A DNA stretch of 64,000 bases, from NCBI GenBank assembly GCA_021833245.1, contig JAKBGA010000001.1, positions 7,466 through 71,465 of the forward strand, given 5' to 3'. The notes beneath the pieces were generated by a model that worked only from the letters and a program-made list of their open reading frames with translations, ran no database searches and had not been told where the DNA came from. Positions 8,178-29,943 of the stretch are shown piece by piece. Numbering within the stretch: position 1 is the first letter of the stretch; every line of letters begins with the position of its first letter. This DNA is from a bacterium (GTDB lineage Bacteria > Patescibacteriota > Minisyncoccia > Phycocordibacterales > Phycocordibacteraceae). A program made the translations under genes and the position numbers.

Positions 8178-8783
8178 TCATTCGAGAATTCCTTTCATAT
8201 CAACATCGTATAGCGTAGCTTCGTGCGGCACATGATACCTAATGATTTCTTCAGATTTGAACCAATGCGGAATCTCCTTCTCCGCTTCAGGAACCGTACC
8301 GGACGCATGGATTAAATTACGGATCGCACGAGTATCCGTATCTGCCATCTGATAAGAATCGAGGACGAAATCGCCACGGATAGTGCCGATACTGGCGCTG
8401 CGCGGCTCGGTACTGCCGGTAATCTTGCGTACAAGCTCAACCGCGTGACCGCCCTCCCAGACCATAGCGATGACTGGTCCGCTTGTCATGTACTTCTTCA
8501 AGCTCACAACGACGCTGTCCGCCACCTCGATCGGGTCAGTTGAAGGCGGTTTCTCGCCTTTCTTCACGTAACTTGAAATCGCCTTCTCACCAACACTCTT
8601 TTTCCAATTCGGATCAAGAAGATAGTGCTCTTCGATCATCGCTTCGGTTGGAATAAGCATCTTGAGCGCGACAAGCTTCAGGCCAGTTCGTTCGTAACGC
8701 CTAATAATCTCGCCAATAAGCGCGCGCTGAATGCCGTCCGGTTTCACGATAACGAGCGTTCGTTCAGTTTTAGGGTGTGCCAT
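8178..8783 (-). CDS. ndk: nucleoside diphosphate kinase (with lineage-type internal insertion)
   Basis: TLVIVKPDGIQRALIGEIIRRYERTGLKLVALK, IRGDF and NLIHASG motifs are present. At 201 aa it is about 60 aa longer than typical Ndk. Confidence 0.85.
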   Translation of the reverse strand: MAHPKTERTLVIVKPDGIQRALIGEIIRRYERTGLKLVALKMLIPTEAMIEEHYLLDPNWKKSVGEKAISSYVKKGEKPPSTDPIEVADSVVVSLKKYMTSGPVIAMVWEGGHAVELVRKITGSTEPRSASIGTIRGDFVLDSYQMADTDTRAIRNLIHASGTVPEAEKEIPHWFKSEEIIRYHVPHEATLYDVDMKGILE

Positions 8784-8812
8784 AGTTTCAAAAATAAAAT
8801 CGCCTGCGGCGG

Positions 8813-9577
8813 TTATTGGGTTATGATACGCGCTCCTCTTCTTTCAATCAAGATGGTGTGCTCGAAATGTGCGGAACGCGAACCATCTTTTGTACGAAAT
8901 GTGTAACCGTCAGCTGCTAGCGTGATCGCGGCCTTGCCTGCTGTCGAAATAGGTTCGAGAGCAAGTACCATGCCCTCGACAAGCAATTCCCCTTCACCTG
9001 GGCGACCAAAATTTGGAATGAAGGGCTCCTCATGAACAAGATTACCAACGCCATGCCCACCGAGCTCTCTTATGACCTTGAAACCCGCATGTTCAATCTC
9101 CTCCTGGATAGCATATGAGATGTCACCGATGTGTTTCCCAGGATTAGCAGCAGCTATGCCCTTCGCGAGGGCACGCTCGGTTGCGTCAAGAAGTAAAGAA
9201 ACTTCTTGACCTATTTCGCCTACCGGCACGGTGATAGCACTGTCGACGACGATACCATTGTGAGTAAGACCGAGATCAAGTCCAACGATATCACCCTTCT
9301 TCAATACCTTCACCGATTCATTCGGGATACCATGCACAACTTCATCATTTATAGAAACACAGAGCGTTGCGGGATATGGCCGTGAGGCACCTTCAGGTGT
9401 ATAGCCAAGGAAGCACGGCTCGTCACCTTTTGCGCGAATGAGCTCTTCCGCCAGATCGTCGAGTTCTTCAGCAGTGACATTGGGCACCACTTTCGCCTTA
9501 AGCGCACGGAGTACGACTGCGAGACGCTTCCCCGCTTCGATAAGATTTGCCCGCTCAGTATTGTTCGTAATTATCAT
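8813..9577 (-). CDS. map: type I methionine aminopeptidase
   Basis: The pita-bread fold motifs are present (GDIVGLDLG, HGVGNLVHEEP, ALEP). Confidence 0.9.
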   Translation of the reverse strand: MIITNNTERANLIEAGKRLAVVLRALKAKVVPNVTAEELDDLAEELIRAKGDEPCFLGYTPEGASRPYPATLCVSINDEVVHGIPNESVKVLKKGDIVGLDLGLTHNGIVVDSAITVPVGEIGQEVSLLLDATERALAKGIAAANPGKHIGDISYAIQEEIEHAGFKVIRELGGHGVGNLVHEEPFIPNFGRPGEGELLVEGMVLALEPISTAGKAAITLAADGYTFRTKDGSRSAHFEHTILIERRGARIITQ

Positions 9578-10140
9578 TGGATATCGAGTGCTGCATTAAT
9601 TTCGGCAGCGATTTTTTCAGGTGACGGCTCGCCGTCCAACTCGATAATATCGCCACCCATACGAAACATTCTGATAACCGACTCGGTATGAGCATAATAT
9701 TCTTTCAAACGTTCGCTAACTACATTGTCATCGGCACGATCTTCGATTTCTTTGCGGAGAGCAAGGCGACGATGAATTTCTTTATCGGACACGCGCAGAT
9801 AAATGACTGAGAACAGCCGCTCGAGCCATACGAGAGATTCCTTAATAAGTTCTGCTTCGTGCAACTTACGGTTGAATCCGTCAAAGATGATGCTTGCGCC
9901 CTCGGGAAGTGCAAAAATGTCTTTCAAAAAAAGATAGGTTGGGAGCCACGATGGCATGAGAAGCCCGGCATCCATCTGGTGTTTCATCTTCCGCCCTACA
10001 GATGTGTCGAGCGCCGCCATCGCCCGGAGCGTGTCACCAGCTGACATGACTTTCCAACCAGTTTTATCCGCAAGAAACTTTGCCTGAGTCCCTTTCCCAC
10101 ATCCAGGTTTTCCAATGAAGAATATCGTTTTTGTTTCCAC
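9574..10140 (-). CDS. adk: adenylate kinase
   Basis: The P-loop GKPGCGKGTQA is present, and the gene overlaps the map start by 4 nt. Confidence 0.85.
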   Translation of the reverse strand: METKTIFFIGKPGCGKGTQAKFLADKTGWKVMSAGDTLRAMAALDTSVGRKMKHQMDAGLLMPSWLPTYLFLKDIFALPEGASIIFDGFNRKLHEAELIKESLVWLERLFSVIYLRVSDKEIHRRLALRKEIEDRADDNVVSERLKEYYAHTESVIRMFRMGGDIIELDGEPSPEKIAAEINAALDIQ

Positions 10141-10279
10141 GAATTATACTTTAGCATTCTTCTGTAGAAGGTGGTAAGTACTGTGTCAAAGCGGTGTTGC
10201 ACCCGTTATTGATGCTGTACCGTTTATAAGTATTTGAAAAGTTGAGGTATGTGAATTAAGAACGGTTTTCGATTTGACT

Positions 10280-11554
10280 CTAATATTCACGAAGTGAGAC
10301 TTGGGCATCAATTTTTTGCGCGAGGTCGAGCGCAACCTGAACTGCAATAAGGAGCGCAGTGCCACCCAAGACAAGTGTCGTTATGCCGGTGAGGCCTTGT
10401 ATAATCGAAGGTGCTACAGCAAGAAGACCGAGGAAACAGGCTCCGGGAAGCGTAACACGATTCACCACCTTGCCTATATATTCTTCAGTTTCACGGCCTG
10501 GGCGCACACCGGGGACAAATGCACCAGTCTTCTGAAGATTTTCTGCAACGCGCTTCGGTTCAAACGTCACTGCAGTATAAAAATAAGTAAATAGCACCAC
10601 GAGCAGGAAATAGATTGTACCGTACTTCCATGGATTTGAAAGAAATGCGGTGTACCACAGTGCCGCGCTTGTCGCGAATGAGATATGTAACGCTCCAAGC
10701 ATTGAGAGCGCCATCTGCGGCAAAAGCAAAAGCGACAATGCGAAAATGATAGGTATCACACCTGCTTGCAGGAGCCGGATCGGCAAATAAGTCGCCGCAC
10801 CTTGTGAAAGCGCCGCGCCGCGTACTGCTCGCGCATATGCGATTGGTATTGAGCGCTCGGCGTCAGAGACAACCACGACCGCGTAAATCATTGCAAGCGC
10901 GAGCAGTATAAATGCGAGATATGCTGGAATGTTTGCCGCGGTTGAGGCAAAAAGCGTTTCTGAAATGCCGGAAGGTACTCGTGCAAGGATACCCGCGAGA
11001 ATTATAAGCGATACACCGTTACCGATACCGAACTCGGTCACAAGTTCACCGAGCCACATGAGAAGCAAGGATCCTGCGGTAACAAGTGCGATATTCGCGA
11101 TAAGTGCTACAGAGCCAAGGTGGCTTATCACATTTTGACCTTCAAGCAGAAATAGGAAACCAACGGCCTGCAGAACGGCAATTGGTATGGTAAGAAGACG
11201 ACTCCATTCGATAAATTTCGCGCGACCAGCCTCACCTTCCTCAAAATATGCTTGCTTTACTTGTGGAAACACCATGGTACCAAGCTGCATAATTATTGAA
11301 GCAGTGATGTAGGGCCCAACGCCGAGCATCACGATTGAGAGCTGGGAAAGACCGCCTCCTGAGAATATGTTCAAAAGACCAAAAAATTGGTTGTTTGCGA
11401 AAAAAGAAGCGAGTGCAATACGGTTGACACCTGGAATCGGAATCGCCGCAAGCAAACGAAAAAGTGCGAGTGCGCCAATAAGAAAAAATATACGAAAACG
11501 GATCTCGTGATCACCAAAAGAAAGCTTGAGTTTACGAATAAAAGAATTAAGCAT
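10280..11554 (-). CDS. secY: preprotein translocase subunit SecY
   Basis: Ten TM helices follow a conserved N-terminus (MLNSFIRKLKLSFGDHEIRFRIFFLIGALALFRLLAAIPIPGV). The start is refined to the Met at codon 71 of the 494-aa ORF, since the upstream extension is not SecY-like. Confidence 0.85.
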   Translation of the reverse strand: MLNSFIRKLKLSFGDHEIRFRIFFLIGALALFRLLAAIPIPGVNRIALASFFANNQFFGLLNIFSGGGLSQLSIVMLGVGPYITASIIMQLGTMVFPQVKQAYFEEGEAGRAKFIEWSRLLTIPIAVLQAVGFLFLLEGQNVISHLGSVALIANIALVTAGSLLLMWLGELVTEFGIGNGVSLIILAGILARVPSGISETLFASTAANIPAYLAFILLALAMIYAVVVVSDAERSIPIAYARAVRGAALSQGAATYLPIRLLQAGVIPIIFALSLLLLPQMALSMLGALHISFATSAALWYTAFLSNPWKYGTIYFLLVVLFTYFYTAVTFEPKRVAENLQKTGAFVPGVRPGRETEEYIGKVVNRVTLPGACFLGLLAVAPSIIQGLTGITTLVLGGTALLIAVQVALDLAQKIDAQVSLREY

Positions 11555-11999
11555 GGATGGTACCGAGAGCGGCAAGAAGTACGGTACGTGCAGCAGTAGA
11601 TACATCGCATCCCTCAATAATGAGAGCCTTCGTGAGAATACCAGTGCCGAGAATTTTAACGATTGGTGTACGCCCTTTTGCGCGGCGAACAAGCCCCTTC
11701 GCAAGAAGAGTCTTAGGTGAGACCATTTCACCAGTTTCGTAGGCAGCTTCAAGAACAGAAACATTCACAACAGAAGTCGGTATTCGATTCGTCCGAACTG
11801 TACGTGCACGATTTTTCCCGTAACCCCGACGCTTGGGGACTTTCTTTATGAAATCGCGAGCTTCTGGACGAATCTTGTGTCCAGCACGCGCAGTCTGTCC
11901 CTTGCCACCTCGTCCGCTCGTTTTGCCACGTTTACCACCTCGTCCAACGGGTGGATTTTTTTTATTTCTTTTGTGTGGAGAAAGTGTATGGAGTTGCAT
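11547..11999 (-). CDS. rplO: 50S ribosomal protein L15
   Basis: The Gly/Arg-rich N-terminus (GRGGKRGKTSGRGGKGQ) is typical of L15. It sits immediately downstream of S5, with no L30 gene between them. Confidence 0.85.
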   Translation of the reverse strand: MQLHTLSPHKRNKKNPPVGRGGKRGKTSGRGGKGQTARAGHKIRPEARDFIKKVPKRRGYGKNRARTVRTNRIPTSVVNVSVLEAAYETGEMVSPKTLLAKGLVRRAKGRTPIVKILGTGILTKALIIEGCDVSTAARTVLLAALGTIHA

Positions 12000-12017
12000 A
12001 TATATTATGTATAGAGA

Positions 12018-12656
12018 TTATTTTGCACGAAGCTTTTTCAAGGCAACAACAGTTGCGCGCGCAATAGTGAGTTTATTCTTAGAGCGTGTGTGAATTTTTG
12101 TTACAACGTCCGTTACGCCAGCGAGATCGAGCACCGTACGTACCGCCGACCCAGCAACGAGTCCACGACCTTCAGAGGGAATAATCTCAACCGTCGAAGA
12201 CGCGTATTTCGCTAAAACCTGATGTGGGATCGATCCTGAGGATGCGCGTGGAACCGTAAAAAGATGTTTCTTTGCGTCACGCATCGCTTTATCTATAGCA
12301 AGAGCGGTATCAACGCCCTTCCCTAAACCTACTCCAACGCGACCTTTCCGGTCACCGATAATTACCACAAGACTAAAGTTAAAACGACGGCCGCCGGCCA
12401 TTACGCGCGCTACACGTCGCGCATCAATCGTTACCTGTTCAAACTCGCCACGTTCACGTTGTGGACGACCGCGTCCACCGCTAGCACGTGGCGCGCGACC
12501 CCGTAGAGACACACGGCCGCCAGCACGCGCGGACGACACGCGTGCTGCGGACGCGCTGGTCTCAGCAGCGGTAGAAATTGTCTCAACGACTACCTCCTCC
12601 GCCACCGGTGGCATACCTTCTGCATCTTGTGTGGTCTTTTGTTCCGAAATAGTCAT
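12018..12656 (-). CDS. rpsE: 30S ribosomal protein S5 (with N-terminal extension)
   Basis: GRRFNFSLVVIIGDRKGRVGVGLGKG...AVRTVLDLAGV are conserved S5 segments. Confidence 0.9.
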   Translation of the reverse strand: MTISEQKTTQDAEGMPPVAEEVVVETISTAAETSASAARVSSARAGGRVSLRGRAPRASGGRGRPQRERGEFEQVTIDARRVARVMAGGRRFNFSLVVIIGDRKGRVGVGLGKGVDTALAIDKAMRDAKKHLFTVPRASSGSIPHQVLAKYASSTVEIIPSEGRGLVAGSAVRTVLDLAGVTDVVTKIHTRSKNKLTIARATVVALKKLRAK

Positions 12657-12667
12657 AGAGAGGTATA

Positions 12668-13018
12668 TTAGAAAACGAGACCGCCAGCGCGTGCAGCATT
12701 CGCAAGCACCTTAACCTGGCCATTATAATGATAACCACCGCGGTCGAAAACAATCGTTATAATACCAGCCGCCTTTGCCTTCTTTGCTATCATGGCGCCA
12801 ACGGATATGGCTTGTTCCGTTTGCGACCCATTAAACTCACGTCCGTGTGCTGCGGCAACCGTTTTCCCAACAACATCATCAATGAGTTGTGCGGAAACGT
12901 ACCGATTACTTCGGTATACTACGAGTCGCGGGCGTTCCGCTGTCCCTTTAATAAGGGCACGTATTCGCGCATGACGACGTTTACGAAATTCGCTGGTTGA
13001 TGTGGGTTTACGATTCAT
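12668..13018 (-). CDS. rplR: 50S ribosomal protein L18
   Basis: RKRRHARIRALIKGTAERPRLVVYRSNRYVSAQLIDD is the L18 N-terminal motif. Confidence 0.9.
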   Translation of the reverse strand: MNRKPTSTSEFRKRRHARIRALIKGTAERPRLVVYRSNRYVSAQLIDDVVGKTVAAAHGREFNGSQTEQAISVGAMIAKKAKAAGIITIVFDRGGYHYNGQVKVLANAARAGGLVF

Positions 13019-13027
13019 AAGTTATGT

Positions 13028-13558
13028 TTAGAGCGCCTTTTTGCCCTGCTTACGACGAATAACTTCATTATCATAACGAATACCCTTCCCGAGATACGGT
13101 TCTGGTGGTTTTACACGTCTGATATTTGCGGCAAATTGCCCAACCGAATCCTTGTTTGTGCTCTCGAGCTTAATAGCGTTCTTCTCAACTGTCGCTGTGA
13201 TACCTTCTGGTATCACAAGTGGCACTGTGTGCGAGAAACCGACCGAAAGTACTATCTCCTTCCCTTTTACTTCCATTTTATAACCAACGCCCTCGAGAAT
13301 GAGTTTTTTCACGTACGGTGTTTCGACTCCCGTAATCATGTTTTTAACGTGCGACGCGAAAGTTCCGGTAAGTTGTTTAGCGAGGCGAGATCGGTCTCTT
13401 GGCGTGACCAAAACTCCGGTCGGTTCAATAGCAATTTCAATCGAAGGGTGTATGCGTTTGGTCAGCGTTCCCTTGGAACCCTTGACTGTCAGCACACCTC
13501 CAGTCACTGAAACATCAGTCTTCCCTACTGCTATTGGTTTTTTCGCAAGTCGGCTCAT
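13028..13558 (-). CDS. rplF: 50S ribosomal protein L6
   Basis: MSRLAKKPIAVGKTDVSVTGGVLTVKGSKGTL is the L6 start. It was refined to the Met at codon 9. Confidence 0.9.
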   Translation of the reverse strand: MSRLAKKPIAVGKTDVSVTGGVLTVKGSKGTLTKRIHPSIEIAIEPTGVLVTPRDRSRLAKQLTGTFASHVKNMITGVETPYVKKLILEGVGYKMEVKGKEIVLSVGFSHTVPLVIPEGITATVEKNAIKLESTNKDSVGQFAANIRRVKPPEPYLGKGIRYDNEVIRRKQGKKAL

Positions 13559-13575
13559 GGTGAATATGTCTTGTA

Positions 13576-13974
13576 TTACCAAATCTCGAAAAGCTCTTCG
13601 CCGCCAATATGATTCTTGCGCGCGTCAGCGTCTGAGATAACGCCCACTGGGCTCGAAATAATGCGTGCTCCTGTACCACCCTTCACACGATGTACGGCAG
13701 TATAAGGTGCATAGAGTCGACGCCCGGGCTTACTTATACGTTTTACGCCGCGTAACTTTGCCCGATCATGTTCATCGTATGTAAGTGTTACGATAAGTGT
13801 TTTTTGGGGACCATCCTCTATGTCAACCTCAGTGGTCATTAAAAATCCGAGCTCTTTGAGTTTCTTCGCGATGGCAGCAATGTGTGCGGAATATGGCACC
13901 GATACTTCACGCTTACCGATGTGGGCAGCATTTTGGAGACGTATGATGAAGTCACCGACGCGGTCGTTTACCAT
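13576..13974 (-). CDS. rpsH: 30S ribosomal protein S8
   Basis: [29 protein letters not shown] is the S8 N-terminus. Confidence 0.9.
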
Positions 13975-14237
13975 GATGCTTTCTTAATGCCCGGAATCTT
14001 ACCTTCTCGCGCAAGTTCTCTGAATTGGATGCGCGAAAGACCGAATGTTCGCATGTAACCGCGCGAACGGCCAGTAATTGAGCAGCGATTTTTCAGACGC
14101 ACAGGGGAAGAATTTCTCGGAAGCTTCTGAAGACCCGCAGAATCGCCAACCAGCTTCAAAGCTGCACGCTTTGCAGCGTACTTCTTCACGAGTTTCGCCT
14201 TCTTTGCATATCTTGCCAGCTGAGATCTTTTTGCCAT
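13968..14237 (-). CDS. rpsN: 30S ribosomal protein S14
   Basis: [28 protein letters not shown]...[28 protein letters not shown] is an S14 sequence. Confidence 0.85.
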
Positions 14238-14742
14238 AAAAAATAAAGCTCCGAAGAGCGTATGAGTACTGTATCACTCCATATCTACGCCGTCAAACAT
14301 TTGTGCGAATCCGGTACTTTTGAGTATTTTCGCTCTGGTAATTTACCAAAAATAACGCAATAGAGACACGAGTTCAAGGCTCAATGCGGACCAATGGATG
14401 GTTTTATACCTATACCATGAAAGAGAATCCATCAACTTCTTGTTGAAGAGGTCAGTACTATGGGGAATACGGCGAACGGTGATATGTGATGAACATATCG
14501 AAGAAAGTGCAATAAACCACACGATCTCAGTATTCTGTTTGGTAGAGTGCTAATACGTGTTGAAGGTGCATATATCTCACCGATTAATAAGCGCCGTACA
14601 GAAATGAGTGATTGTCAGTGATGCACAAAATAGTGAGACGCGAGACATATGCAGGAGACGAAAAGCCCAATAACCTATTGTTCTCAATATTCTGCAATTA
14701 TATTCTTATAAACTACAAATTACCTTGAAGACCCTATATAGA

Positions 14743-15297
14743 CTATTTCTTAGCCGTACTCGGTTCAGCTATAAGCGGCATGCCGATGTGACGAAAAAAA
14801 GCTTCAGCTTCAGCCTTCGTATGCGCCGTGGTAACAATGGTGACAGCGAAACCGAAGACATCCTTTAGGTCTTCATCGGAAGTCTCTGGAAAAATCGTAT
14901 GTTCTTTGACGCCAATAGTGAGGTTACCCATATCATCGATCGCTTTCGCAGAAAGACCGCGAAAATCACGCGTGCGTGGAAGCGCAACGTGAATAAGCTT
15001 ATCAAGAAAATCGAACATACGTGCACCTCGGAGCGTTACTTGCAGGCCGACTGTATCGCCCGCACGCACTTTGAAGGAAGCAATGGAAATGCGCGCGGGG
15101 CGCGAAGACGGTTTTTGCCCCGTAATTCTCGCGAGACGGTTTTCGATAATCTCGACTTGTTTTTTATCACGCTTTTTCCCTACACCAGAAGAGACGATCA
15201 TCTTAAGAACACGAGGGCTCTGCATCGGACTCGTGTAGCCAAAGATTTCCTTGAGGGCGAGATATGCTGTTTGTTGTTTTTGTTTGGTAAGAGACAT
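14743..15297 (-). CDS. rplE: 50S ribosomal protein L5
   Basis: MIVSSGVGKKRDKKQVEIIENRLARITGQKP is the L5 signature. Confidence 0.9.
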   Translation of the reverse strand: MSLTKQKQQTAYLALKEIFGYTSPMQSPRVLKMIVSSGVGKKRDKKQVEIIENRLARITGQKPSSRPARISIASFKVRAGDTVGLQVTLRGARMFDFLDKLIHVALPRTRDFRGLSAKAIDDMGNLTIGVKEHTIFPETSDEDLKDVFGFAVTIVTTAHTKAEAEAFFRHIGMPLIAEPSTAKK

Positions 15298-15300
15298 GTT

Positions 15301-15519
15301 TTATTTTTCCATTCGCTTTACATTTGACACATGGATCGGCCTAGACTTCTCAACGATACGTCCAACTTTCCCCGTGCCACCTTTTAAGTGACGTTTATAT
15401 AACGCCACACCCTCGACTATAATCTTATCCTCGCGAGGGAAAGCACGCATAATAACACCGGACTTGCCCTTGTCTTTCCCTGTTATTATTTGCACCTTAT
15501 CTCCTTTTTTTACATGCAT
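15301..15519 (-). CDS. rplX: 50S ribosomal protein L24
   Basis: [23 protein letters not shown] is the L24 KOW start. It was refined to the Met at codon 22. Confidence 0.85.
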
Positions 15520-15542
15520 ATATAAAGAAATTAACGTAATGA

Positions 15543-15926
15543 CTATACGACTTCTGGCGCTAAGGAAACGATGGAATGCCAACCACGCTCGGACAACTCA
15601 CGTGGCACAGGACCAAAGATACGATTCCCCTTGGGCCCCATTTCCTTACCCTGTTTCTCGATGAGAACGACTGCGTTCTCATCGAAACGAACATATGAGC
15701 CATCCTTACGTGCAAAAGGTTTTGTCTGTCGAACAACAACGGCACGATAGATGTCCTTTTTCTTAACTGCCTTGCGTGGTTCAGCGGTCTGAATGGAAAT
15801 AACAACAACATCCCCAATGCCAGCGTAACGACGTTTGGATCCGCCAAGTACTTTGAAAACTCTAGCGAATTTACCGCCAGAATTATCCGCAACTGCCACG
15901 ATAGATCGGTCCTGTAACATACTCAA
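15543..15926 (-). CDS. rplN: 50S ribosomal protein L14
   Basis: [21 protein letters not shown] is the L14 signature. The start may be the second Met at 15920. Confidence 0.9.
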
Positions 15927-16186
15927 TTACCAATAATTACTTTCTCATTAATAATACGGAAGTGTTTTGATTTTGAGATCGGCCGCGTTGCCACTATAGT
16001 AACCGTATCACCAACTTGCACCGTGTTGCCGGGATTGTGCACAAGATATTTCTTAGATCGCACAAGATATTTCTTGTACTTAACATTTTTCACGTAACGA
16101 TCAACCTTGACGGTTGCCGTATCTTTCATCGCTGTCTTAACAACGACGCCGACAAATGACTGGGGGCGAGTAATTTTTTGTTCCAT
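15923..16186 (-). CDS. rpsQ: 30S ribosomal protein S17
   Basis: FVGVVVKTAMKDTATVKVDRYVKNVKYKKY is an S17 sequence. Confidence 0.9.
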   Translation of the reverse strand: MEQKITRPQSFVGVVVKTAMKDTATVKVDRYVKNVKYKKYLVRSKKYLVHNPGNTVQVGDTVTIVATRPISKSKHFRIINEKVIIGN

Positions 16187-16192
16187 ACGATT

Positions 16193-21397: not shown

Positions 21398-21404
21398 AGT
21401 ACGT

Positions 21405-22019: not shown

Positions 22020-22132
22020 TTTTAAAGCAAAACGCGCAACAGCAAGTCGCTTTGCGCGAGGTTGCTATAGGACCAGTCGTGGGCACCGTTCGTAGCGTTA
22101 ACAGCACTCTACACAAAATCATAAAAATATGC

Positions 22133-22163: not shown

Positions 22164-22166
22164 CGG

Positions 22167-22739
22167 TTAAAGGCCATTACGCCCTAAAACTGTTTTGACG
22201 GTTCGGGAAAGAATATATAGATCAAGTAGGAAACAATGGTGGTTAATATAGAAGGATTCTAGACGGAAAACACATCGAATACCGCGTTTGAGCGACCACA
22301 TTCTCCCATGGATCTGCTCAAGCCCGGTCAACCCGGGCCGAACGTTGTTAAGTCGAAGCGCGTATTCAGGAATCTCCTGGATACACTTTTCAACAAATTC
22401 AACCCGATGAGGACGTGGGCCAACTAGACTCATCTGCCCCAACAACACATTGATAAGCTGTGGTAGTTCGTCAATGTGCGTTTCACGCAAAAACTTTCCC
22501 GGCACCGTAATTCGGTTATCACCCAACAAAACCATGTCGAACGGATACCCACTTCCATCCTTCATGGTTCGAAACTTAAAGATGACAAATGACTTACCAC
22601 GATAACCAACACGAGTCTGCCGAAAGATAATCGGCCCAGGTGAAGTTACCCTAATCCAAATCGCAATAAAAAGAACCAGCGGGGCTGAAAAGATCAAGAT
22701 TATGAATGTGCATATGAGATCAAATATTCTTTTGCTCAT
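22167..22739 (-). CDS. small bacterial sugar transferase (polyprenyl-phosphate glycosyl-1-phosphate transferase; WbaP/PglC-like catalytic domain)
   Basis: One N-terminal TM helix and the Bac_transf motifs (RQTRVGYRGKSFVIFKFRTM, DELPQLINVLLGQMSLVGPRP). The start was refined to MSKRIFDL. It is inserted between rpsJ and rplC. Confidence 0.75.
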   Translation of the reverse strand: MSKRIFDLICTFIILIFSAPLVLFIAIWIRVTSPGPIIFRQTRVGYRGKSFVIFKFRTMKDGSGYPFDMVLLGDNRITVPGKFLRETHIDELPQLINVLLGQMSLVGPRPHRVEFVEKCIQEIPEYALRLNNVRPGLTGLEQIHGRMWSLKRGIRCVFRLESFYINHHCFLLDLYILSRTVKTVLGRNGL

Positions 22740-22862
22740 CACTTCCTCCTTAAAAGCGGTAAAAGTGATAGTCGCTGTATACCACAAAAATATGTATATC
22801 GTCAAGTACAAGAAACCGCCCCTACAAGGGGCGGTTTCTTGTACTTCTTTTACAGCATCATT

Positions 22863-23303
22863 CTAAACCATCTTGACGTCTATCGTAACCCCAGAAGGAA
22901 GATTAAGGTTCGTGAGGGCCTCGATCACCTTGGGCGATGGGTTCAGGATATCGACGAGTCGCTTATGAACGCGCATTTCAAACTGTTCGCGTGCATCCTT
23001 ATGCACGAACGTTGAACGATTCACTGTCCAACGTTTGGTCTCAGTTGGAAGCGGTACGGGGCCGACAACAGTTGCGTCAAAGCGGGCCGCGGTATCCATA
23101 ATCTGTTTCACCGAAAGATCAAGAATCTTATGTTCATAGGCACGAACACGAATTCGAAGTTTGTGTTCTACTGAGGGTGCTGTAGCAACTTTTTTTGAAC
23201 CGACTTTTGTCCGCGATATCTTTGATATTGTGACTTTCCCTACTTTTGATTTTGTTGCTACTGTTGTTGCCATACGAGTACTTCCTGATCCGAGTATCGG
23301 CAT
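22863..23303 (-). CDS. rpsJ: 30S ribosomal protein S10 (N-terminal extension)
   Basis: KLRIRVRAYEHKILDLSVKQIMDTAARFDATVVGPVPLPTE is the S10 core. The true start may be the Met at 23273. Confidence 0.9.
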   Translation of the reverse strand: MPILGSGSTRMATTVATKSKVGKVTISKISRTKVGSKKVATAPSVEHKLRIRVRAYEHKILDLSVKQIMDTAARFDATVVGPVPLPTETKRWTVNRSTFVHKDAREQFEMRVHKRLVDILNPSPKVIEALTNLNLPSGVTIDVKMV

Positions 23304-24502
23304 TACGCTGTAATCTTGGTCACGACACCAGCACCAACGGTCTTACCTCCTTCCCGGATAGCAAAACGTTGCTGCTCCTCAAGAGCAACTGGTGCCACGA
23401 GTTTCACCTTGAATGTGACTGTATCGCCAGGCATAACCATTTCCTTACCTTCTGCGAGAGTTACTTCACCGGTCACATCCGTCGTACGAATATAGAACTG
23501 TGGTTTGTATCCAGAGAAGAATGGCGTGTGTCGTCCACCTTCGTCCTTACCGAGAATGTAGACCTCTGCTTCAAAGTCAGTATGCGGCGTAACTGAGCCA
23601 CTCTTGGCGAGAACCTGACCGCGATGTACGTCCTCTTTCTTGGTTCCACGTAGAAGAAGACCGGCATTGTCACCCGCTTGACCTTCCTGAAGCTGCTTAT
23701 TGAACATTTCGATGCCTGTGACAGTCGTCTTCGACGTCGCCTTGATGCCGACAATTTCGACTTCCTCACCAACTTTTACAGCACCACGCTCAATACGCCC
23801 AGTGACTACCGTGCCTCGACCTTCAATCGAGAAGATGTCCTCGATGGGCATGAGGAATGGTTTGGTGAGCTCACGCTGCGGCATGTCGAAATAAGTGTCC
23901 ATTGTGTCGACAAGCTCTTTCACCTTCATGGCGTACTCGTCATTGGCGTCCTTCGCCTCAAGAGCGCGGAGACCGGAGCCACGGATAATTGGCGTGTTCG
24001 CACCGTCATAACCCTGCTTCGTAAGCAACGCATGAATCTCCTCTTCGACAAGATCAACGAGATCTTTGTCGGCCACCATATCCACCTTGTTAAGGAAAAC
24101 GATTAACTTCTTGAGGCCAACTTGCTTCGCGAGTAAGATATGCTCGCGCGTCTGCGGCATTACACCATCAGTTGCGGCAACTACGAGGATTGCGCCGTCC
24201 ATTTGGGCAGCACCCGTGATCATATTTTTTATGTAGTCGGCGTGTCCTGGGGCGTCAATGTGCGCGTAGTGACGATTCGGTGTTTCATATTCAGAGTGGT
24301 GGAGGGCAATAGTAATACCGCGTGCTTTTTCTTCTGGGGCGCTGTCAATTTTATCGACGCCTTCAACACGAGCGCTATAGCCCTGTCCTGAAAGCATCGA
24401 AAGAACGTGTAGAATACCCGCCGTGAGTGTCGTTTTTCCATGGTCCACATGACCGATGGTGCCAACGTTCATGTGCGGCTTGTTGCGATTAAATTCTGCC
24501 AT
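23303..24502 (-). CDS. tuf: elongation factor Tu
   Basis: [17 protein letters not shown] and NKVD are the GTPase motifs. Length is 399 aa. Confidence 0.97.
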
Positions 24503-24764
24503 ATTAAATCGGATGATCTTAAGTTAATAAATCACGAATTAATCCGACGTCTGTCTTGCCGACAAGACAAGTGAGTCGGAACAAACTCTCGAGCTTGCCG
24601 ACCCACAAAAGCAGACAAGCCAAAGAGCGACGCCAAGATGCGTTATAGGCACTATACGCAAACGCGTTTATAAATGCAACTCACCCACGTGGATACACTG
24701 TGAAAATTATTTCCTGCTCGCGCTGATATCTTGAACGATGTCTATAGTGAATCAACTCTTCCAC

Positions 24765-26126
24765 TTACTGACTGAGTGTCCCGATCCAAACACCACCTTG
24801 AGACGTAAGTGCCACGAGGCGCATACCATCGGAGGAAGAGATAATGCTACTCCAGGAGTGCAAGCCTGCGCTCGTTTGAGCGTTCCATGTACTGCCAGAG
24901 TCGGAAGACGTATAGATATAGCCTCCAGTACCAGCGCCGGCGTCATAGATTGCCGCGAGATGCGTACCGTCGGCGGAAGAGACAATACCACCCCAGTAAC
25001 GCTGACCGGCACCAGTTTGAGCGGTCCATGTAGAACCAGAGTCCGATGATGTATAAATGTCACCGCCGCTCCCAGTTCCGCCGTCAGACGCTGCGAGATG
25101 CGTACCGTCGGCAGAAGAAACGAGACCAGACAAGGCACCCGTTGCGTCCCCCATACTATGCATGATCCATGTGGTGCCAGAATCCGAGGATGTGAAAACA
25201 CAGCTACCCACTTCGGTACACGTAGTGTCAATGACTGCGAGATGCGTACCGTCGGCGGAAGAAACAATATGACCGAGCGCGATTTGATAAGACGTACCAT
25301 CTTGAGGTAGCGTGTGAGTAGCCCAAGTAACGCCGAAATCGGCAGAAGTATAAACAACATCAAGCCCTGCAACCGCGAGATGCATACCGTCGGCGGAGGA
25401 CGCGATTCCCGATGCGTTTGTAATTTGACCGGCAGTACCAGTAATGGCGCGCTTAACCCAGGTGACACCGGAATCAGCGGAAACATATACTTCTTTGCCG
25501 TCGGTACCAGCGGCTGCGAGATGTGTACCGTCAGCGGAAGAAGTTATATACCACAATGATGATCCCCCGGGGACGGGCCGATAAACCCATGTGGTGCCAG
25601 AATCATTGGAAGTATATACACCTCCATTTGGGAGGGTATCAACTGCTGCGAGATGCGTACCGTCGGCGGAAGAAGTGATGGTGGAAAAATATAAGGTTGA
25701 TGAACTTTTTGCTTTATATGAACCTTCTGCATTGTGTTCAGCCCAGGTCCAAGAACCCCCCGTGTTATTAATCGGCTCTGTCTGGGGCGCGGAAACATTA
25801 GAGTTATTAGAGTTAGAGTATGTAAAATACGCGAAAACCGCTCCTCCGCCAATAATGGCAATGGCGACCAAGACGATGAGTTTTGTAGAAATTGCTGCCC
25901 CTCTTTTATTTGATACATGATTTAGACTTGTTGCAGATTGCTGTTGGATCGGTGTTGAGAGGTGTGAAGAAATAGATGGTGTCGGAATACTCATTGCGGC
26001 AAATGCTGCACTGATGTCTGAAACCTGCCATCCGTTCGTCGTGAGTTCTTTTGTGATATCTTCCCTTGAAATGCCAGAGGCCATTTGTTGGCGGATGTAA
26101 TTCAGGAGTTGTTCGTTGGGCATCAT
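24765..26126 (-). CDS. membrane-anchored BNR/Asp-box repeat (beta-propeller) protein with a conserved about 40-aa cytoplasmic N-terminal module
   Basis: The N-terminus (LLNYIRQQMASGISREDITKELTTNGWQVSDISAAF) is followed by a TM helix and then about 7 repeats of SSADGTHLAA...YTSxDSGxTW, the S-x-D-x-G-x-T-W Asp-box/BNR motif. It is inserted between fusA and tuf. Several overlapping frame-shadow ORFs are repeat artefacts. Confidence 0.7.
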   Translation of the reverse strand: MMPNEQLLNYIRQQMASGISREDITKELTTNGWQVSDISAAFAAMSIPTPSISSHLSTPIQQQSATSLNHVSNKRGAAISTKLIVLVAIAIIGGGAVFAYFTYSNSNNSNVSAPQTEPINNTGGSWTWAEHNAEGSYKAKSSSTLYFSTITSSADGTHLAAVDTLPNGGVYTSNDSGTTWVYRPVPGGSSLWYITSSADGTHLAAAGTDGKEVYVSADSGVTWVKRAITGTAGQITNASGIASSADGMHLAVAGLDVVYTSADFGVTWATHTLPQDGTSYQIALGHIVSSADGTHLAVIDTTCTEVGSCVFTSSDSGTTWIMHSMGDATGALSGLVSSADGTHLAASDGGTGSGGDIYTSSDSGSTWTAQTGAGQRYWGGIVSSADGTHLAAIYDAGAGTGGYIYTSSDSGSTWNAQTSAGLHSWSSIISSSDGMRLVALTSQGGVWIGTLSQ

Positions 26127-26245
26127 AAGAACAGGTTATGTATATGCTGCAAGCGTAGCACAATCGCCGCCGTTTCGAACAGCAGTTGTTTACAAGCCCT
26201 CTCGTGGTGATTCATTTACAGTTCGCGATGACCAAACACGTGTCC

Positions 26246-28393
26246 TTATTTTCGCGAGGCGATTATGTCTTGGGCGACATTGTTCGGGACAGTATCGTAG
26301 TGATCAAACTCCATTGTCATACTTCCGCGTCCTTCGGTCATTGAGCGGAGCGTCGTGGTGTAGCCGAACATCTCGGAGAGCGGCACCTTCGCTTTAATTG
26401 TCTTGTTCATGCCGCGATCCTCCATACCCTCGATCTGACCGCGCTTACCCGAGAGGTTGCCCGTAATGTCGCCCATGAATTGCTCAGGCACAGTAACTTC
26501 CACGCGCATAATTGGCTCGAGAATGACCGCCTTTGCCTTCGATGCAGCTTCCTGGAAAGCCATTGATGCCGCGATCTTGAAGGCGATTTCGGATGAGTCG
26601 ACATCGTGATAGGAACCATCGTAGAGATCTACGGACACATCAACCATCGGGAATCCAGCAAGGAAGCCACGGGCCATCGCCTCACGAACACCCTTTTCCA
26701 CCGCCGGAATGTATTCCTGCGGAACAACACCGCCCTTTATATTGTTGATAAACTCGAAATGATCTTCGCGTGTAATATTCTTAGACACCTTTGCACCCTC
26801 TACGAGAGGTTCTAATTTCTTCATGCGGATCTTCACATGACCATACTGACCACGACCACCAGTTTGTTTAATATATTTACCCTCGGCCTCTGAAGAACCG
26901 AGAATGGTTTCACGATACGCTACTTGCGGTTTCCCTACATCCGCAACAACATTGAACTCGCGCTTCATGCGATCTACGAGAATCTCCAGATGAAGCTCGC
27001 CCATGCCAGAGATGATAGTCTCGGCAGTCTCATCATCAGTTTTGATTCGAAAGGTCGGATCTTCATCTGCAAGCTTACGAAGCGCAATGCCCATCTTCTC
27101 TTGATCTGCTTTTGTCTTAGGCTCAATACGCAAACTTACCACTGGTTCTGGAAATTTTATCTGTTCAAGCACAATGGGATTCGCCTCGTCGCAGAGCGTG
27201 TGTGAAGTTTTCGTGTCCTTCAGACCAACGGCGGCGGCAATCTCACCAGTGAATACTTTCGCGACCTCTTCACGTTTATCCGCTTGGAGACGCACAATAC
27301 GTCCGACACGCTCCTTGGAACCTGTTGTTGAATTATATACGTACGAACCAGCAGCGAGAGTTCCAGAATAAACACGAAAGAATGTTAATGCTCCAACGAA
27401 AGGATCAGTTTGAAGTTTGAAAACAAGCGCGCAAAACGGCTCATCATCTGATGCGTGACGTTCAATTGATTCGCCCGTCTTCGGATTTGTGCCAGTTGCA
27501 GGCGGAACATCGAGCGGACTTGGTAAATAATCGACAACGGCATCAAGTACGAGCTGAACACCCTTATTCTTGAGTGCGCTCCCGCAGTAAACTGGAAACA
27601 CCTCATTCGCGATAACCGCTTTACGTAGAATTGCCTTTAACTCAGAAAGTGAGGGTTCCTTGCCTTCGAGGTATGCGTTCATTACCGTATCATCTTGTTC
27701 AACAATGCGTTCTATGAGTTCAGCACGGTACTTCTTCGCATCTTCAAGAAGATTCTCTGGAATTTCTCCTTCAACTACCTCCTCGCCCATATTCCCCACG
27801 TAGGTGTACGCTTTCATTGTGAGAAGGTCGACCGCGCCCTCGTGTGCTGCCTCTTCACCAATGGGGATTTGCATGCGAATAGCCTTGGGTGAAAGTCGAT
27901 CAAGAATACTCTTGTATGAATTTTCAAATGATGCTCCAAGCCGGTCAAGCTTATTGACGAAACAGACGCGCGGCACTGACGCCTCGTCGGCGTAGCGCCA
28001 GTTGGTCTCGGACTGCGGCTCCACGCCCGCGACGCCATCGAACACGACAACAGCGCCGTCAAGCACACGCATCGAACGCTTTACCTCAGCAGTGAAGTCG
28101 ATGTGTCCCGGTGTGTCGATGATATTGAAACGGAATTTCTTGGATGCGTCCTTTTTGTCCTTCTCGCCAGTCTTGCTCCAGAAGCAAGTGATGGCGGCGG
28201 CAGTGATGGTGATACCGCGCTCACGCTCCTGCTCCATCCAATCGGTCGTAGTTTCGCCTTCGTGTACTTCACCGATCTTGTGCTGACTGCCCGTATAAAA
28301 AAGTACGCGCTCACTTGTGGTCGTCTTTCCTGCGTCGATGTGGGCAATGATGCCGAAGTTGCGCACTTTCTCAAGCGGATAATCACGGTTCAT
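26246..28393 (-). CDS. fusA: elongation factor G
   Basis: [15 protein letters not shown] and DTPGHIDF are present, with the domain IV/V sequences. Length is 715 aa. Confidence 0.97.
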
Positions 28394-28475
28394 AAATAAT
28401 AATGGATAAAAAAATAAAAAGCGCCGAGGCGTTCTCCAGAGAATAGCCTAGATAAAATAAATTGCAAAGTATGCA

Positions 28476-28506
28476 AAAATAAAAAGCCCACTCTTGCAGA
28501 GTGGGC
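28476..28506 (-). terminator. rho-independent terminator between the 136-aa hypothetical gene and fusA
   Basis: GCCCACTC-TTGCA-GAGTGGGC stem-loop. Read on the minus strand it is followed by TTTTTATTTTT. A 26-bp palindrome (TTATTGTGATTT/GAAAATCACAATAA) lies next to it and overlaps the ORF stop. A TTGCAA/TATTCT promoter-like pair sits downstream, before fusA. Confidence 0.55.
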
Positions 28507-28530
28507 TTAAAAATTATTGTGATTTGAAAA

Positions 28531-28941
28531 TCACAATAACTGATGCGCTTCCATGATAAAGATTTGCTGTGCCTGTGGAAGATCACAGAACAAATCTCTC
28601 AGTTCTGCCCTTGTCTTTGGCATAAGGATACTCGAGACAACGCGAATATTTACGCCATCGTAAGTCCCGTTCATTTGTAAGTGGATACGAAGAAGTACCT
28701 CTCCTGCTGGTGTACAGAATTCCACGCACTTCCGCTGATAGCGGTAGCGCACTCGGATACAAATCGCATCTCGAGTCATCTGGTCTGCAATTTCATCCAG
28801 CCGCGCCAGCAGACGGGAGATACGTAAATTTCTTCTCCATGGATTGAATTCCGCAATGCACGACAACCACGTTGGCATGTAGTATGAATTGCCGGTAACG
28901 TTCTCGCTCCTCTTTGGAACAAGCTTAACCGTTGATGACAT
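28531..28941 (-). CDS. hypothetical protein (136 aa) inserted between rpsG and fusA
   Basis: A clean ORF with a dedicated downstream terminator. No motif I can recognise, but it contains several cysteines. Confidence 0.45.
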   Translation of the reverse strand: MSSTVKLVPKRSENVTGNSYYMPTWLSCIAEFNPWRRNLRISRLLARLDEIADQMTRDAICIRVRYRYQRKCVEFCTPAGEVLLRIHLQMNGTYDGVNIRVVSSILMPKTRAELRDLFCDLPQAQQIFIMEAHQLL

Positions 28942-29062
28942 GATACGTCTCCCTATGTAATGAACAATGATAAACGGAAAATTTAACCCTGATCCGGATT
29001 TTTTGTAGCACTATTTAAATAAATAGTCAAGATTCGCACCTCCTCTACATCTTGCTTAACGG

Positions 29063-29527
29063 TTACCAGGCAAAATGTGCAAAAGCTTTATTAGCTTCAG
29101 CCATACGATGCATTTCGTCCTTTTTCTTTATCGCATCACCTTCATTCTTTGCGGCAAGGATAAGTTCATCGGCAAGCTTATCTGCCATTGGTTTACCTTT
29201 TTTTGCACGTGCAGCGTTGATAATCCAACGAAATGAGAGCGTAAGACGACGGTTCTGAGAAACTTCACGCGGCACCTGGTAATTGGCACCTCCAACACGA
29301 CGAGAACGAACCTCCATGAGCGGTGAAACGTTACGCAACGCTGTCTCGAATGTCTCGAGAGGATTGGTACCGTCTTTTTCAATGGTAGAAAACGCGCGAT
29401 AAACAACTGCACGCGCGGTGTCCTTCTTGCCATCCCACATGACAGCATTGATGAAACGATTGAGTGTTTCTGATCCATACTTAAGATCTGGGCGCCAAAC
29501 TCGCTTCTTTTTAAGAGGTCGACGCAT
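29063..29527 (-). CDS. rpsG: 30S ribosomal protein S7
   Basis: NAVMWDGKKDTARAVVYRAF...NYQVPREV is an S7 sequence. Confidence 0.95.
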   Translation of the reverse strand: MRRPLKKKRVWRPDLKYGSETLNRFINAVMWDGKKDTARAVVYRAFSTIEKDGTNPLETFETALRNVSPLMEVRSRRVGGANYQVPREVSQNRRLTLSFRWIINAARAKKGKPMADKLADELILAAKNEGDAIKKKDEMHRMAEANKAFAHFAW

Positions 29528-29529
29528 AT

Positions 29530-29943
29530 TTATTTTGCAGAAGGACGCTTCGCGCCGTAACGCGAGCGTGAGCGACGGCGTTTATCAAGACCAGCGGTGT
29601 CAAGCTTTCCACGCACAATAGTATATTGCACGCCGATATCCTTCACACGTCCGCCACGAAGTAGCACGACTGAGTGCTCCTGAAGATTATGCGTCTCGCC
29701 TGGGATATAAGCGGTAACCTCCATACCATTTGTAAGACGAACGCGTGCGATCTTTCTGATAGCTGAGTTTGGTTTCCTCGGAGTCTTTGTCGTCACTTTA
29801 GTACAAACACCGCGTTTAAAAGGTGATGGATAGAAAGTTGGACGATTCGAGAGTACGTTAAAGCCGCGCGCAAGGGCGGGTACCTTCGTCTTGGACGATT
29901 TGTTCTTGCGGCCTCTCTTCGAGAGCTGATTGATAGTTGCCAT
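29530..29943 (-). CDS. rpsL: 30S ribosomal protein S12
   Basis: PKKPNSALRKV-type motif ([30 protein letters not shown]). Confidence 0.95.

Follow-up and report, generated by a model that had tools for sequence, protein, structure and literature searches.

We describe the str-S10-spc supercluster of ribosomal protein (r-protein) and elongation factor genes in a contig from a patescibacterium (GenBank assembly GCA_021833245.1, contig JAKBGA010000001.1, positions 7,466 to 71,465 of the forward strand). The whole stretch of 64,000 nucleotides is referred to here as the window. The cluster occupies the minus strand from 29943 down to 8178, and all stranded features given below lie on that strand except one inserted gene. 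A Pfam search of the open reading frames (ORFs) identified each gene of the expected order and the inserts, which confirms the five interruptions reported in a first-pass annotation of the window. That annotation had framed them as an oddity of one genome; we observed the same five junctions to be open across the lineage.

The interruptions divide the cluster into six blocks. Block 1 (29063-29943) holds rpsL (29530-29943) and rpsG (29063-29527), which matched the Pfam S12 and S7 families, and fusA stands alone in block 2 (26246-28393; Pfam domains of elongation factor G). Block 3 (22863-24502, Pfam) is formed by tuf (23303-24502) and rpsJ, where the ORF of the latter is 22863-23303 and the gene is given as 22863 to about 23273. 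Block 4 (19427-22019, Pfam) contains rplC, rplD, rplW and rplB (19427-20275). Block 5 (14743-18233) extends from rpsS (17889-18233) through rplV, rpsC, rplP, rpmC, rpsQ, rplN and rplX to rplE (14743-15297), and block 6 (8813-14237) from rpsN (13968-14237) through rpsH, rplF, rplR, rpsE, rplO, secY and adk to map, both assigned from Pfam matches and gene calls. The canonical gene order is kept save that rpmD (L30) is missing between rpsE and rplO, and the absence of L30 is a reported trait of bacteria of the candidate phyla radiation (CPR; PMC9297842). It is the contiguity of the supercluster that is lost. Five junctions measure 669 (rpsG-fusA), 1743 (fusA-tuf), 843 (rpsJ-rplC), 1193 (rplB-rpsS) and 505 nt (rplE-rpsN), four of them with extra genes, and the remaining junctions are tight. 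In Escherichia coli all five are internal to operons: the first two (rpsG|fusA and fusA|tuf) belong to str, the next two (rpsJ|rplC and rplB|rpsS) to S10 and the last (rplE|rpsN) to spc.

Chimeric assembly was one possibility that the first-pass annotation had named as fatal to its claim. An independent contig from a metagenome-assembled genome (MAG), L001 (JAJXVZ010000003.1; loci of relatives are cited below by such numbers), was found to be collinear with positions 12235-31994 of the window at 97.5% identity over 19.8 kb. Furthermore, the exact protein of one small insert, cys70, is encoded on 18 contigs of several NCBI and ENA assemblies, and the gene order is identical in all eight of these places that were listed, each a different assembly. 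One such contig is 100% identical to the window and the rest represent a second strain type of 97-99% identity. No break in base composition was observed within the window. Because the arrangement recurs across independent assemblies, it is not a chimera.

Promoter-like sites with a leader were found upstream of all six blocks. At rpsL (29944-30005), a TTGCAT box (30005-30000) and a TATATT box (29982-29977) are separated by 17 nt and followed after 7 nt by the hairpin GACCC-tcctc-GGGTC (29969-29955), a U-rich tail and the ATG at 29943. The site at fusA (28394-28467) consists of TTGCAA (28467-28462), 16 nt and TATTCT (28445-28440), with a short CGCC/GGCG hairpin (about 28431-28422), a U-run and the ATG at 28393, which has no Shine-Dalgarno motif; this arrangement of promoter, CGCC/GGCG hairpin and U-run is also present in L002, L004, L020, L022, L025, L028, L039 and L040. 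Upstream of tuf (24503-24679), TTGCAT (24679-24674), 17 nt and TATAGT (24656-24651) precede a leader of about 140 nt, in which the hairpin ACGC-atcttg-GCGT starts 7 nt past the -10 box. The putative promoter of rplC (22020-22134) has TTGCAT (22134-22129), 17 nt and TAGAGT (22111-22106), and its leader of about 80 nt carries the GGUCCUAUAG motif and a hairpin (22057-22034) whose U-run adjoins the AUG. Both longer regions are nearly invariant between the strain types, with 99.6% identity at tuf and 100% at rplC. At rpsS (18234-18302), TTGACG (18302-18297), 17 nt, TATCTT and 8 nt lead to the hairpin CTCGCG-cttg-CGCGGG (18265-18250), a U-rich tail and the ATG at 18233, and at rpsN (14238-14296), TTGACG (14296-14291), 17 nt, TACAGT and 8 nt lead to GCTC-ttcg-GAGC (14259-14248), a T-run and the ATG at 14237.

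A relaxed scan for the composite of promoter, hairpin and U-rich tract over both strands of the whole 64-kb window gave only four matches, which are all at block starts (rpsL, tuf, rpsS and rpsN). The same layout was recognised by eye at fusA and at ndk, and rplC has the promoter-like site with the leader of about 80 nt. These assignments use sigma-70 consensus rules borrowed from model bacteria, which may not be those of Patescibacteria. In the region 8178-30005 we noticed no convincing Shine-Dalgarno motif before any r-protein or elongation factor gene. The upstream regions are A/U-rich, and the short strings of this kind before rpsJ, rplD, rpsN and rplR are chance or hairpin sequence.

Recurrence of the five junctions and their signals in relatives

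A synteny comparison across patescibacterial relatives, which the first-pass annotation had proposed, was carried out in two sets. Set 1 comprises 80 loci around L3 homologues from species-representative genomes, onto which the window proteins were mapped; about 57 are Patescibacteria loci (L001 excluded) and 21 are outgroup loci from Chloroflexota, Bacteroidota, Actinomycetota and others. Set 2 comprises 80 metagenome contigs. A gap of at least 450 bp was counted as an interruption, and 24 junctions were compared. The term Paceibacteria-type used for the relatives rests on record titles and a tree of L3, L4 and L2, and many MAG taxonomy labels are unreliable.

The same five junctions were found to be interrupted in both sets. 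In set 1 gaps were observed in 8/24 loci at rpsG|fusA, 23/30 at fusA|tuf, 14/49 at rpsJ|rplC, 28/45 at rplB|rpsS and 12/32 at rplE|rpsN, and each of the other 19 junctions was interrupted in at most one locus. Thus 85 of the 89 gap events fall at five junctions which make up 21% of the junction instances. The corresponding values in set 2 are 5/12, 17/18, 12/56, 24/39 and 14/19, or 72 of 79 events, and fusA|tuf is the most frequently opened with up to 94% of the loci. The 21 outgroup loci are tight at these positions except for two gaps, both in L080. The operon borders of E. coli, on the other hand, stay closed in the relatives, where tuf|rpsJ was opened in one of 92 loci and rpsQ|rplN in none of 67. 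The ends of the cluster follow the same pattern. Among loci with at least 4 kb of non-cluster flank, the cluster starts only at rpsL (9), tuf (10) or rplC (5) and stops only at rplB (5) or rplE (1). All five junctions are interrupted in only one (L020) of the 16 Patescibacteria loci of set 1 that span all of them, with a mean of about 2.6 interruptions; the trait is thus shared by the lineage, and the window shows it at the high end without being unique. The tree also shows that interruption states differ among close relatives.

The five junctions are marked even where nothing has been inserted. Terminator-like hairpins were observed at uninterrupted junctions in 3/16 loci for rpsG|fusA, 3/7 for fusA|tuf, 5/34 for rpsJ|rplC, 6/15 for rplB|rpsS and 8/17 for rplE|rpsN, as against 0-2 at each of the other junctions over similar scanned lengths. 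The region upstream of rpsS in relatives has a recurrent architecture where a TTGACA-like box, 16-18 nt, a TAnnnT box and 4-9 nt are followed by a short GC hairpin, a U-rich tract and an AUG without a Shine-Dalgarno motif. In set 1, this composite signal was found before rpsL in 5/25 loci, fusA in 5/40, tuf in 5/43, rplC in 6/56, rpsS in 25/45 and rpsN in 9/33. It was absent upstream of all 19 internal genes, and shuffled sequence gives about 0-0.2 matches. Set 2 gave 24/39 for rpsS and 7/19 for rpsN with three stray matches. In the outgroup none was found before fusA, tuf, rplC, rpsS or rpsN, and single matches occur before rpsL and secY. Promoter-like sites were accompanied by a hairpin in 95 of 204 block-initial cases but in only 3 of 129 internal ones (p = 2e-21, with relatedness of the loci ignored). 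An E. coli-type partition into str, S10 and spc is not what these predicted signals indicate, as composites were found only before the six block starts, and tuf|rpsJ and rpsQ|rplN are tight.

The hairpins vary in sequence with their pairing kept, and AAGCUC/GAGCUU, CCCGC/GCGGG, GCGCC/GGCGC and CGCC/GGCG stems were all observed. The AAGCUC/GAGCUU hairpin precedes rpsS, rplC or rpsN depending on the genome; together with CCCGC/GCGGG it is one of the two main stem types that recur before different blocks in different genomes. In the rpsS leaders the hairpin starts 4-9 nt past the -10 box, a narrower range than the 3-14 nt permitted in the search. The sub-operons which the first-pass annotation predicted are hence strongly supported, as far as such predicted features can do so, by the gaps, the terminator-like hairpins and the composite signals in relatives.

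The rplC and tuf leaders contain additional elements. The rplC leader (22020-22104) forms a predicted internal-loop helix with the motif G[GA]ACC(A/U)(A/C/U)U(A/G)G, which precedes rplC in 23/130 Patescibacteria loci and was encountered no more than once before any other gene. In the 3' half of this helix, CAAUGGC could base-pair with GCCAUUG, and the latter overlaps the 5' arm of the terminator-like hairpin adjoining the AUG. RNAalifold showed compensatory changes in 3/5 pairs of this long-range helix; MAFFT with RNAalifold recovers this one helix only, from an alignment that is not structure-aware. The layout resembles an attenuator, and the leader is a candidate regulatory RNA. Examples in relatives are L004:9920-10003, L028:9910-10003, L089:4491-4587, L110:4405-4487 and L115:9893-9997, among others, and we also noticed a shorter variant with the motif 5 nt from the AUG and no terminator (L013, L017, L022 and L095). 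For tuf, a hairpin with (G)UUCUCG(C/U)(G/A)(C/U) was observed in 25/78 Patescibacteria loci (for example L010, L012, L014, L025, L030, L033, L040 and L053), and window positions 24503-24650 hold a diverged version. This motif occurs 0-7 times before other genes, and the highest count, 7 before fusA, probably reflects tuf loci cross-assigned by tblastn. The tuf hairpin is likewise a candidate, as an EF-Tu leader element.

Inserted genes, spacer and cargo

The insert between rpsG and fusA is hyp136 (28531-28941), a 136-aa ORFan behind a GGGAG Shine-Dalgarno motif. It matched no Pfam, NCBIfam or PADLOC family, and among 5.8 billion proteins its homologues were limited to two near-identical clusters of the same species; no function can be assigned. 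An AlphaFold model (mean predicted local distance difference test score 55) was too poor and was not used for fold searches. Since there is no terminator between rpsG and hyp136, the rpsL unit probably extends through hyp136 and ends with it; a terminator-like hairpin with an 11-bp stem and a T-run follows the gene (28484-28508). The alleles of the window and L001 differ by 31 synonymous and 19 non-synonymous changes, and the ratio of non-synonymous to synonymous divergence (pN/pS) of 0.18 indicates a coding gene under purifying selection. Its pS of 0.34 is four to five times as high as in the flanks (0.06-0.09). Nucleotide identity between the strain types is 87% in hyp136 and about 76% in its upstream spacer (region 28531-29062) as compared to 97-99% in the flanks, so that gene and spacer look like an allelic cassette swapped by recombination.

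Between fusA and tuf lies a gene for a membrane-anchored Sortilin-Vps10/BNR beta-propeller protein (24765-26126), with no terminator between it and fusA. The Pfam score of Sortilin-Vps10 is 42.9 bits (cut-off 33), and that of BNR_6 is 26.6 bits (cut-off 27). Six internal repeats of about 141 nt, at a spacing of 132-144 nt, fit repeated Asp-box blades. One transmembrane (TM)-like segment is present at residues 73-104 approximately.

The insert between rpsJ and rplC encodes Bac_transf, a small polyprenyl-phosphate glycosylphosphotransferase of 190 aa (22167-22739). Its ORF is 22167-22811 and the true start is likely to be the ATG at 22739 behind AAGGAGG. The match to PF02397 scores 189 bits (cut-off 27) over profile positions 1-178 of 179, NCBIfam matches cover only the C-terminal catalytic domain, about 185 residues, of long enzymes, and a TM-like segment is present, all of which fits the small single-domain type. 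The gene has a promoter-like site of its own (TTGACG-18-TATACA) and is followed by a terminator-like hairpin with a 12-bp stem and a T-run (22140-22168). The two hairpins after hyp136 and Bac_transf fall where the first-pass annotation had placed a terminator for each of these inserts. The rpsJ stop codon is directly followed by an inverted repeat (22804-22846) with a perfect stem of 20 bp, a loop of 3 nt and no T-run. It reaches into the -35 region of the promoter-like site of Bac_transf and could be a processing or stability element, or serve the tuf-rpsJ block as a terminator without a U-run.

Two ORFs are inserted between rplB and rpsS. The first, cys70 (19151-19363), is a 70-aa Cys-rich ORFan behind GGAGGGG, for which no family was found and only its own sequence was returned from 5.8 billion proteins. 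The second, on the plus strand, encodes an N-terminally anchored DUF3298 protein (18388-19101). A hairpin between these convergent genes (19106-19131) is likely a bidirectional terminator. Of the earlier label DUF3298/RsiV-like, the first half holds with a Pfam score of 50 bits, but the resemblance to RsiV is weak. As an anti-sigma-V factor of the RsiV kind the protein was rejected, with 18.3 bits against an NCBIfam cut-off of 250 and no cytoplasmic domain; it begins directly with a hydrophobic segment. Purifying selection is evident in the genes for the BNR (pN/pS 0.16), Bac_transf (0.20) and DUF3298 (0.41) proteins as well as in hyp136, which answers the concern that the inserts might not be real genes for all except cys70. 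The latter differs from L001 by one synonymous change, which is too little variation to judge by, and is a putative gene. The strong Shine-Dalgarno motifs of hyp136 (GGGAG), Bac_transf (AAGGAGG) and cys70 (GGAGGGG) mean that one cluster holds two styles of translation initiation side by side.

The 505-nt stretch between rplE and rpsN (14238-14742) has 39% GC compared to 46% in the window as a whole, and its longest ORF does not exceed 68 codons, which agrees with its description as an AT-rich non-coding spacer. However, its last 60 nt or so are the rpsN promoter/leader, the sole part conserved in relatives (87% identity over 61 nt in L090, 85% over 40 nt in L004 and 96% over 24 nt in L003). 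The other 445 nt or so (14297-14742) are lineage-specific non-coding DNA with no ORF and no homology in the relatives. When folded as RNA the spacer was found not to be unusually structured (z = +0.59). A pseudogene origin was considered and set aside, as a decayed gene could not be demonstrated: when the spacer was compared by tblastx and blastn with all loci and with the gaps that relatives have at rplE|rpsN, only its last 25-60 nt or so matched. Rfam 15 at gathering thresholds gave no match in the cluster when the whole window was searched. At E values up to 5 (8000-30500), only terminator-like matches at 28454-28559 around the hyp136 terminator were returned, plus one match to a snoRNA model at 26995-27076, which lies inside fusA and is due to chance.

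The cargo of the relatives was observed to be heterogeneous. Of 241 gap ORFs, 189 are singletons, and the cargo ORFs match 80 different Pfam families which include diacylglycerol kinase, MazF/PemK toxins (four genes), histidine kinases, pilin-like proteins and assorted enzymes. The surface domains PG_binding_1, PKD, Big_7, Kre9_KNH and the pilin N_methyl domain recur. The proteins inserted in the window were found only in same-species assemblies, with the exception of one Bac_transf homologue in L081. This homologue is 56% identical and is located at the same rpsJ|rplC junction, in a locus where L3 is 85% identical to that of the window and rplB|rpsS is tight. No decayed remnants of Bac_transf were found in the rpsJ|rplC gaps of relatives, where the intact L081 homologue was the only one.

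Two cargo families deserve separate mention. A large, repeat-rich and apparently secreted protein family occurs as cargo at rpsJ|rplC, fusA|tuf and rplB|rpsS in different genomes, with members at L002:8813-9787, L020:5939-6934, L031:6643-8199, L043:12619-14694, L045:5143-7709 and L049:12654-15674. A small family lies directly upstream of rpsS in four relatives (L026:9254-9646, L027:13421-13813, L034:10038-10508 and L039:15642-16031) and, unlike most of the cargo, would have kept its position. The prokaryotic diacylglycerol kinase family counted four times in the cargo is probably this one.

Proposed insertion-tolerant boundaries and competing explanations

We consider it likely that the supercluster, in this organism and in its Paceibacteria-type relatives, consists of six independently promoted blocks with insertion-tolerant boundaries: rpsL-rpsG, fusA, tuf-rpsJ, rplC-rplD-rplW-rplB, rpsS through rplE, and rpsN through secY-adk-map. 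Each block would have a sigma-70-type promoter, and its transcript would open with a short GC hairpin and then a U-rich leader without a Shine-Dalgarno motif; the tuf and rplC blocks would add longer, gene-specific structured leaders. Since such a boundary has predicted terminator and re-initiation signals in place beforehand, an insertion at it should be free of polar effects and should leave translational coupling intact. Selection would purge insertions elsewhere, which would disturb co-transcription and coupling. A boundary that has been opened may gain, exchange and lose cargo quickly and may become the place where the cluster splits. The five interruptions of the window would then be the present cargo of five boundary sites. 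We infer that tolerance to insertion, and not targeted insertion, is behind the pattern. The promoter and hairpin signals are presumed to function as such, and the hairpin may act as a stabiliser of the 5' end, as an insulator or as both. The hairpin with its U-tract could also stop read-through from upstream cargo.

Several points weigh against this interpretation. The promoters, transcription starts and terminators are known only as matches to consensus sequences, and a promoter-proximal hairpin with a U-run could terminate the transcripts of its own promoter. With the strict -35 rule, the composite was found in only 10-15% of the fusA, tuf and rplC instances; many promoters of these genes have TTGCAT-type -35 boxes, which the scan misses. 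Exceptions occur in the form of gaps at rplC|rplD in 6/73 set-2 loci and at rplW|rplB once per set. Gap sizes were taken from tblastn alignment ends and are approximate by up to about 150 nt. Furthermore, the loci are related by descent and some organisms may be represented in both sets, so that counts are not independent and p-values overstate significance. Finally, these data do not discriminate between permissive boundaries, where selection acts as the filter, and a recombination hot spot, where the bias is mutational.

A more speculative extension, which we regard as possible though clearly less probable than the six-block arrangement itself, is that the hairpin and U-tract form a lineage-specific cis-regulatory module. 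One trans-acting factor, or promoter-proximal attenuation, would co-ordinate the six blocks through it. Regulon-style control would in this case have replaced operon coupling and enabled the fragmentation, and the rplC and tuf leaders would be undescribed autoregulatory RNAs.

One alternative supposes that envelope genes were recruited to the cluster so that their products scale with ribosomes, which would tie envelope growth to translation capacity. We think this improbable. The first-pass annotation had suggested that three envelope-associated inserts would be co-expressed with the translation apparatus, and the BNR, Bac_transf and DUF3298 proteins do have TM-like segments. The co-expression part of the claim fared less well. 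The hyp136, BNR and cys70 genes have the orientation of the cluster, and no terminator separates them from the upstream r-protein or EF-G gene, so their co-transcription with the neighbouring block is plausible. For Bac_transf, which has its own promoter-like site and Shine-Dalgarno motif and stands behind the 20-bp hairpin, it is doubtful, and for DUF3298, on the opposite strand, it is not plausible. Both Bac_transf and hyp136 end in strong terminators, and the downstream blocks have promoter-like sites of their own. The Bac_transf homologue at the same junction in L081 and the recurrence of surface domains and diacylglycerol kinase in relatives are in line with such recruitment, but the cargo is otherwise unrelated between genomes and includes toxins, kinases and metabolic enzymes. 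Co-orientation of 77% of the cargo ORFs is no higher than that of the flanking genes (82%), and an N-terminal hydrophobic segment was observed in 35% of the cargo ORFs as against 50% of the flanking genes by a crude test, namely a Kyte-Doolittle window on mechanically called ORFs. In addition, Shine-Dalgarno motifs are found on the cargo genes and not on the r-protein genes, a contrast which marks the cargo as differently organised genes. Given the heterogeneous cargo and the lack of membrane enrichment, coupling of the envelope to translation is not needed to explain the data.

A mutational hot spot is equally improbable as the explanation. Here the promoter/hairpin/U-tract modules shared between boundaries, or the terminators, would favour recombination, illegitimate or homologous, whatever the fitness effect of the insertions. 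Different block starts do share near-identical short modules, the hyp136 terminator and the fusA leader resemble each other at 77% in their tails, and the divergence of the hyp136 cassette suggests recombinational replacement bounded by conserved sequence. These modules are, however, only 12-30 nt long, and no direct repeats flank the inserts of the window. A hot spot also leaves unexplained why the signals are present and conserved at uninterrupted junctions. Recombination bias at short shared modules may nevertheless contribute, as it is compatible with insertion-tolerant boundaries and not exclusive of them.

Site-specific mobile elements such as integrative islands, toxin-antitoxin cassettes or transposons are a far weaker candidate as agents that target the junctions. 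Four MazF/PemK toxin genes in the cargo of relatives and the transposable-element integrations within and between operons of the cluster reported for other bacteria by Brandis (2021; PMC8046335) are in line with them. However, no integrase or transposase family is among the 25 most frequent Pfam families of the cargo, and Pfam found no recombinase domain in the inserted proteins of the window. A repeat search showed no direct repeats, terminal inverted repeats or target-site duplications flanking these inserts, which have no integrase genes beside them either and no match among PADLOC defence families, and no tRNA gene is located inside the cluster. An assembly or binning artefact can practically be dismissed, although the source is a metagenome and ribosomal regions of atypical composition are prone to binning errors (PMC9723686), given the collinear L001, the same order in at least eight different assemblies of two strain types, the even composition of the window and the interruption of the same junctions in about 100 other loci.

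Comparison with known systems and neighbouring features

The most fitting view of the window is that it exemplifies a repartition of the ribosomal supercluster across the lineage, with five boundaries that tolerate insertion. Operon-boundary insertion itself is a known process and was treated in a 2019 paper (PMC6735719); what appears to be new here is the position of the borders, together with the candidate leader elements. In the operon-border sequence described by Brandis for Gammaproteobacteria and Bacilli (PMC8046335), a few unrelated genes enter a transcription-unit boundary, as here, and disconnection follows at that place. Insertion sites and fission sites likewise coincide in our loci. 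The borders differ, however, with tuf|rpsJ and rpsQ|rplN closed, and the frequency is far higher. The literature searched, the coverage of which was incomplete, yielded no earlier account of such interruptions in the ribosomal cluster of CPR, Patescibacteria or Parcubacteria.

Parts of the layout have parallels elsewhere. The str operon of archaea, cyanobacteria and plastids has S10 behind EF-Tu/EF-1alpha, and L3 opens the cluster that comes next, so that a tight tuf-rpsJ pair and a unit boundary at rpsJ|rplC are shared with the window. We know of no breaks in these groups at rpsG|fusA, rplB|rpsS or rplE|rpsN, nor of variable cargo in the boundaries. Hot spots of horizontal gene transfer are also comparable, where few core-gene intervals hold most of the variable genes and the content differs between close relatives. 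The same concentration was observed here, but inside a conserved ribosomal cluster and without detectable mobile-element signatures.

The predicted leaders can be compared with two kinds of RNA element. Stem-loops at the 5' terminus are known to stabilise mRNAs, as in the ompA leader of E. coli and in Bacillus, where they protect against RNase J. The hairpins described here would begin close to the predicted +1, and the window has a gene for an RNase J-like protein; they differ in that the U-tract follows at once, so that they also resemble intrinsic terminators. The S10 operon leader of E. coli is an attenuator controlled by L4. The rplC leader shares an attenuator-like layout with it, but precedes rplC instead of rpsJ and gave no Rfam match. 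According to PMC3616713, r-protein autoregulatory RNAs of the E. coli type are narrowly distributed.

A conserved gene order does not have to entail a conserved operon map. For both conserved order and operon-level autogenous control of ribosome synthesis, str-S10-spc is the standard textbook example, and a very large uncultivated lineage appears to keep the order while it redraws the predicted unit boundaries: five are new, and the two classical ones are closed. Predictions of transcription starts and leaders thereby become testable in organisms where almost nothing is known of transcription signals, and the regions upstream of rplC and tuf provide candidates for new regulatory RNAs. Phylogenomic and binning pipelines often assume a compact ribosomal block on one contig, to which Paceibacteria bring insertions of 0.5-10 kb and splits at predictable positions. 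Variable cargo beside strongly expressed genes is also a natural place for strain-specific surface and accessory functions.

A few further features were noticed. Insertions of 1-4 kb within the rplC-rplB block are present in L105, L131 and L139 (rplC|rplD) and in L015 and L088 (rplW|rplB). Directly upstream of rpsL, in the place that holds rpoB and rpoC in many bacteria, four successive minus-strand ORFs of 257, 680, 584 and 351 aa (30017-35628) matched no Pfam family. At the other end, none of the alpha-operon genes (infA-rpmJ-rpsM-rpsK-rpsD-rpoA-rplQ) was found among the ORFs of at least 150 aa scanned in 524-48668 of the window; the spc-alpha pair is concatenated in every genome of the analysis by Brandis (2021; PMC8046335). 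Downstream of map, ndk (8178-8783, Pfam) and then an RNase J-like beta-CASP gene (6510-7901) stand in its place. The ndk leader (8784-8851) comprises TTGATT (8851-8846), TATCAT (8828-8823), a hairpin at 8811-8801 and the ATG at 8783, and its promoter-like site sits within the 3' end of map.

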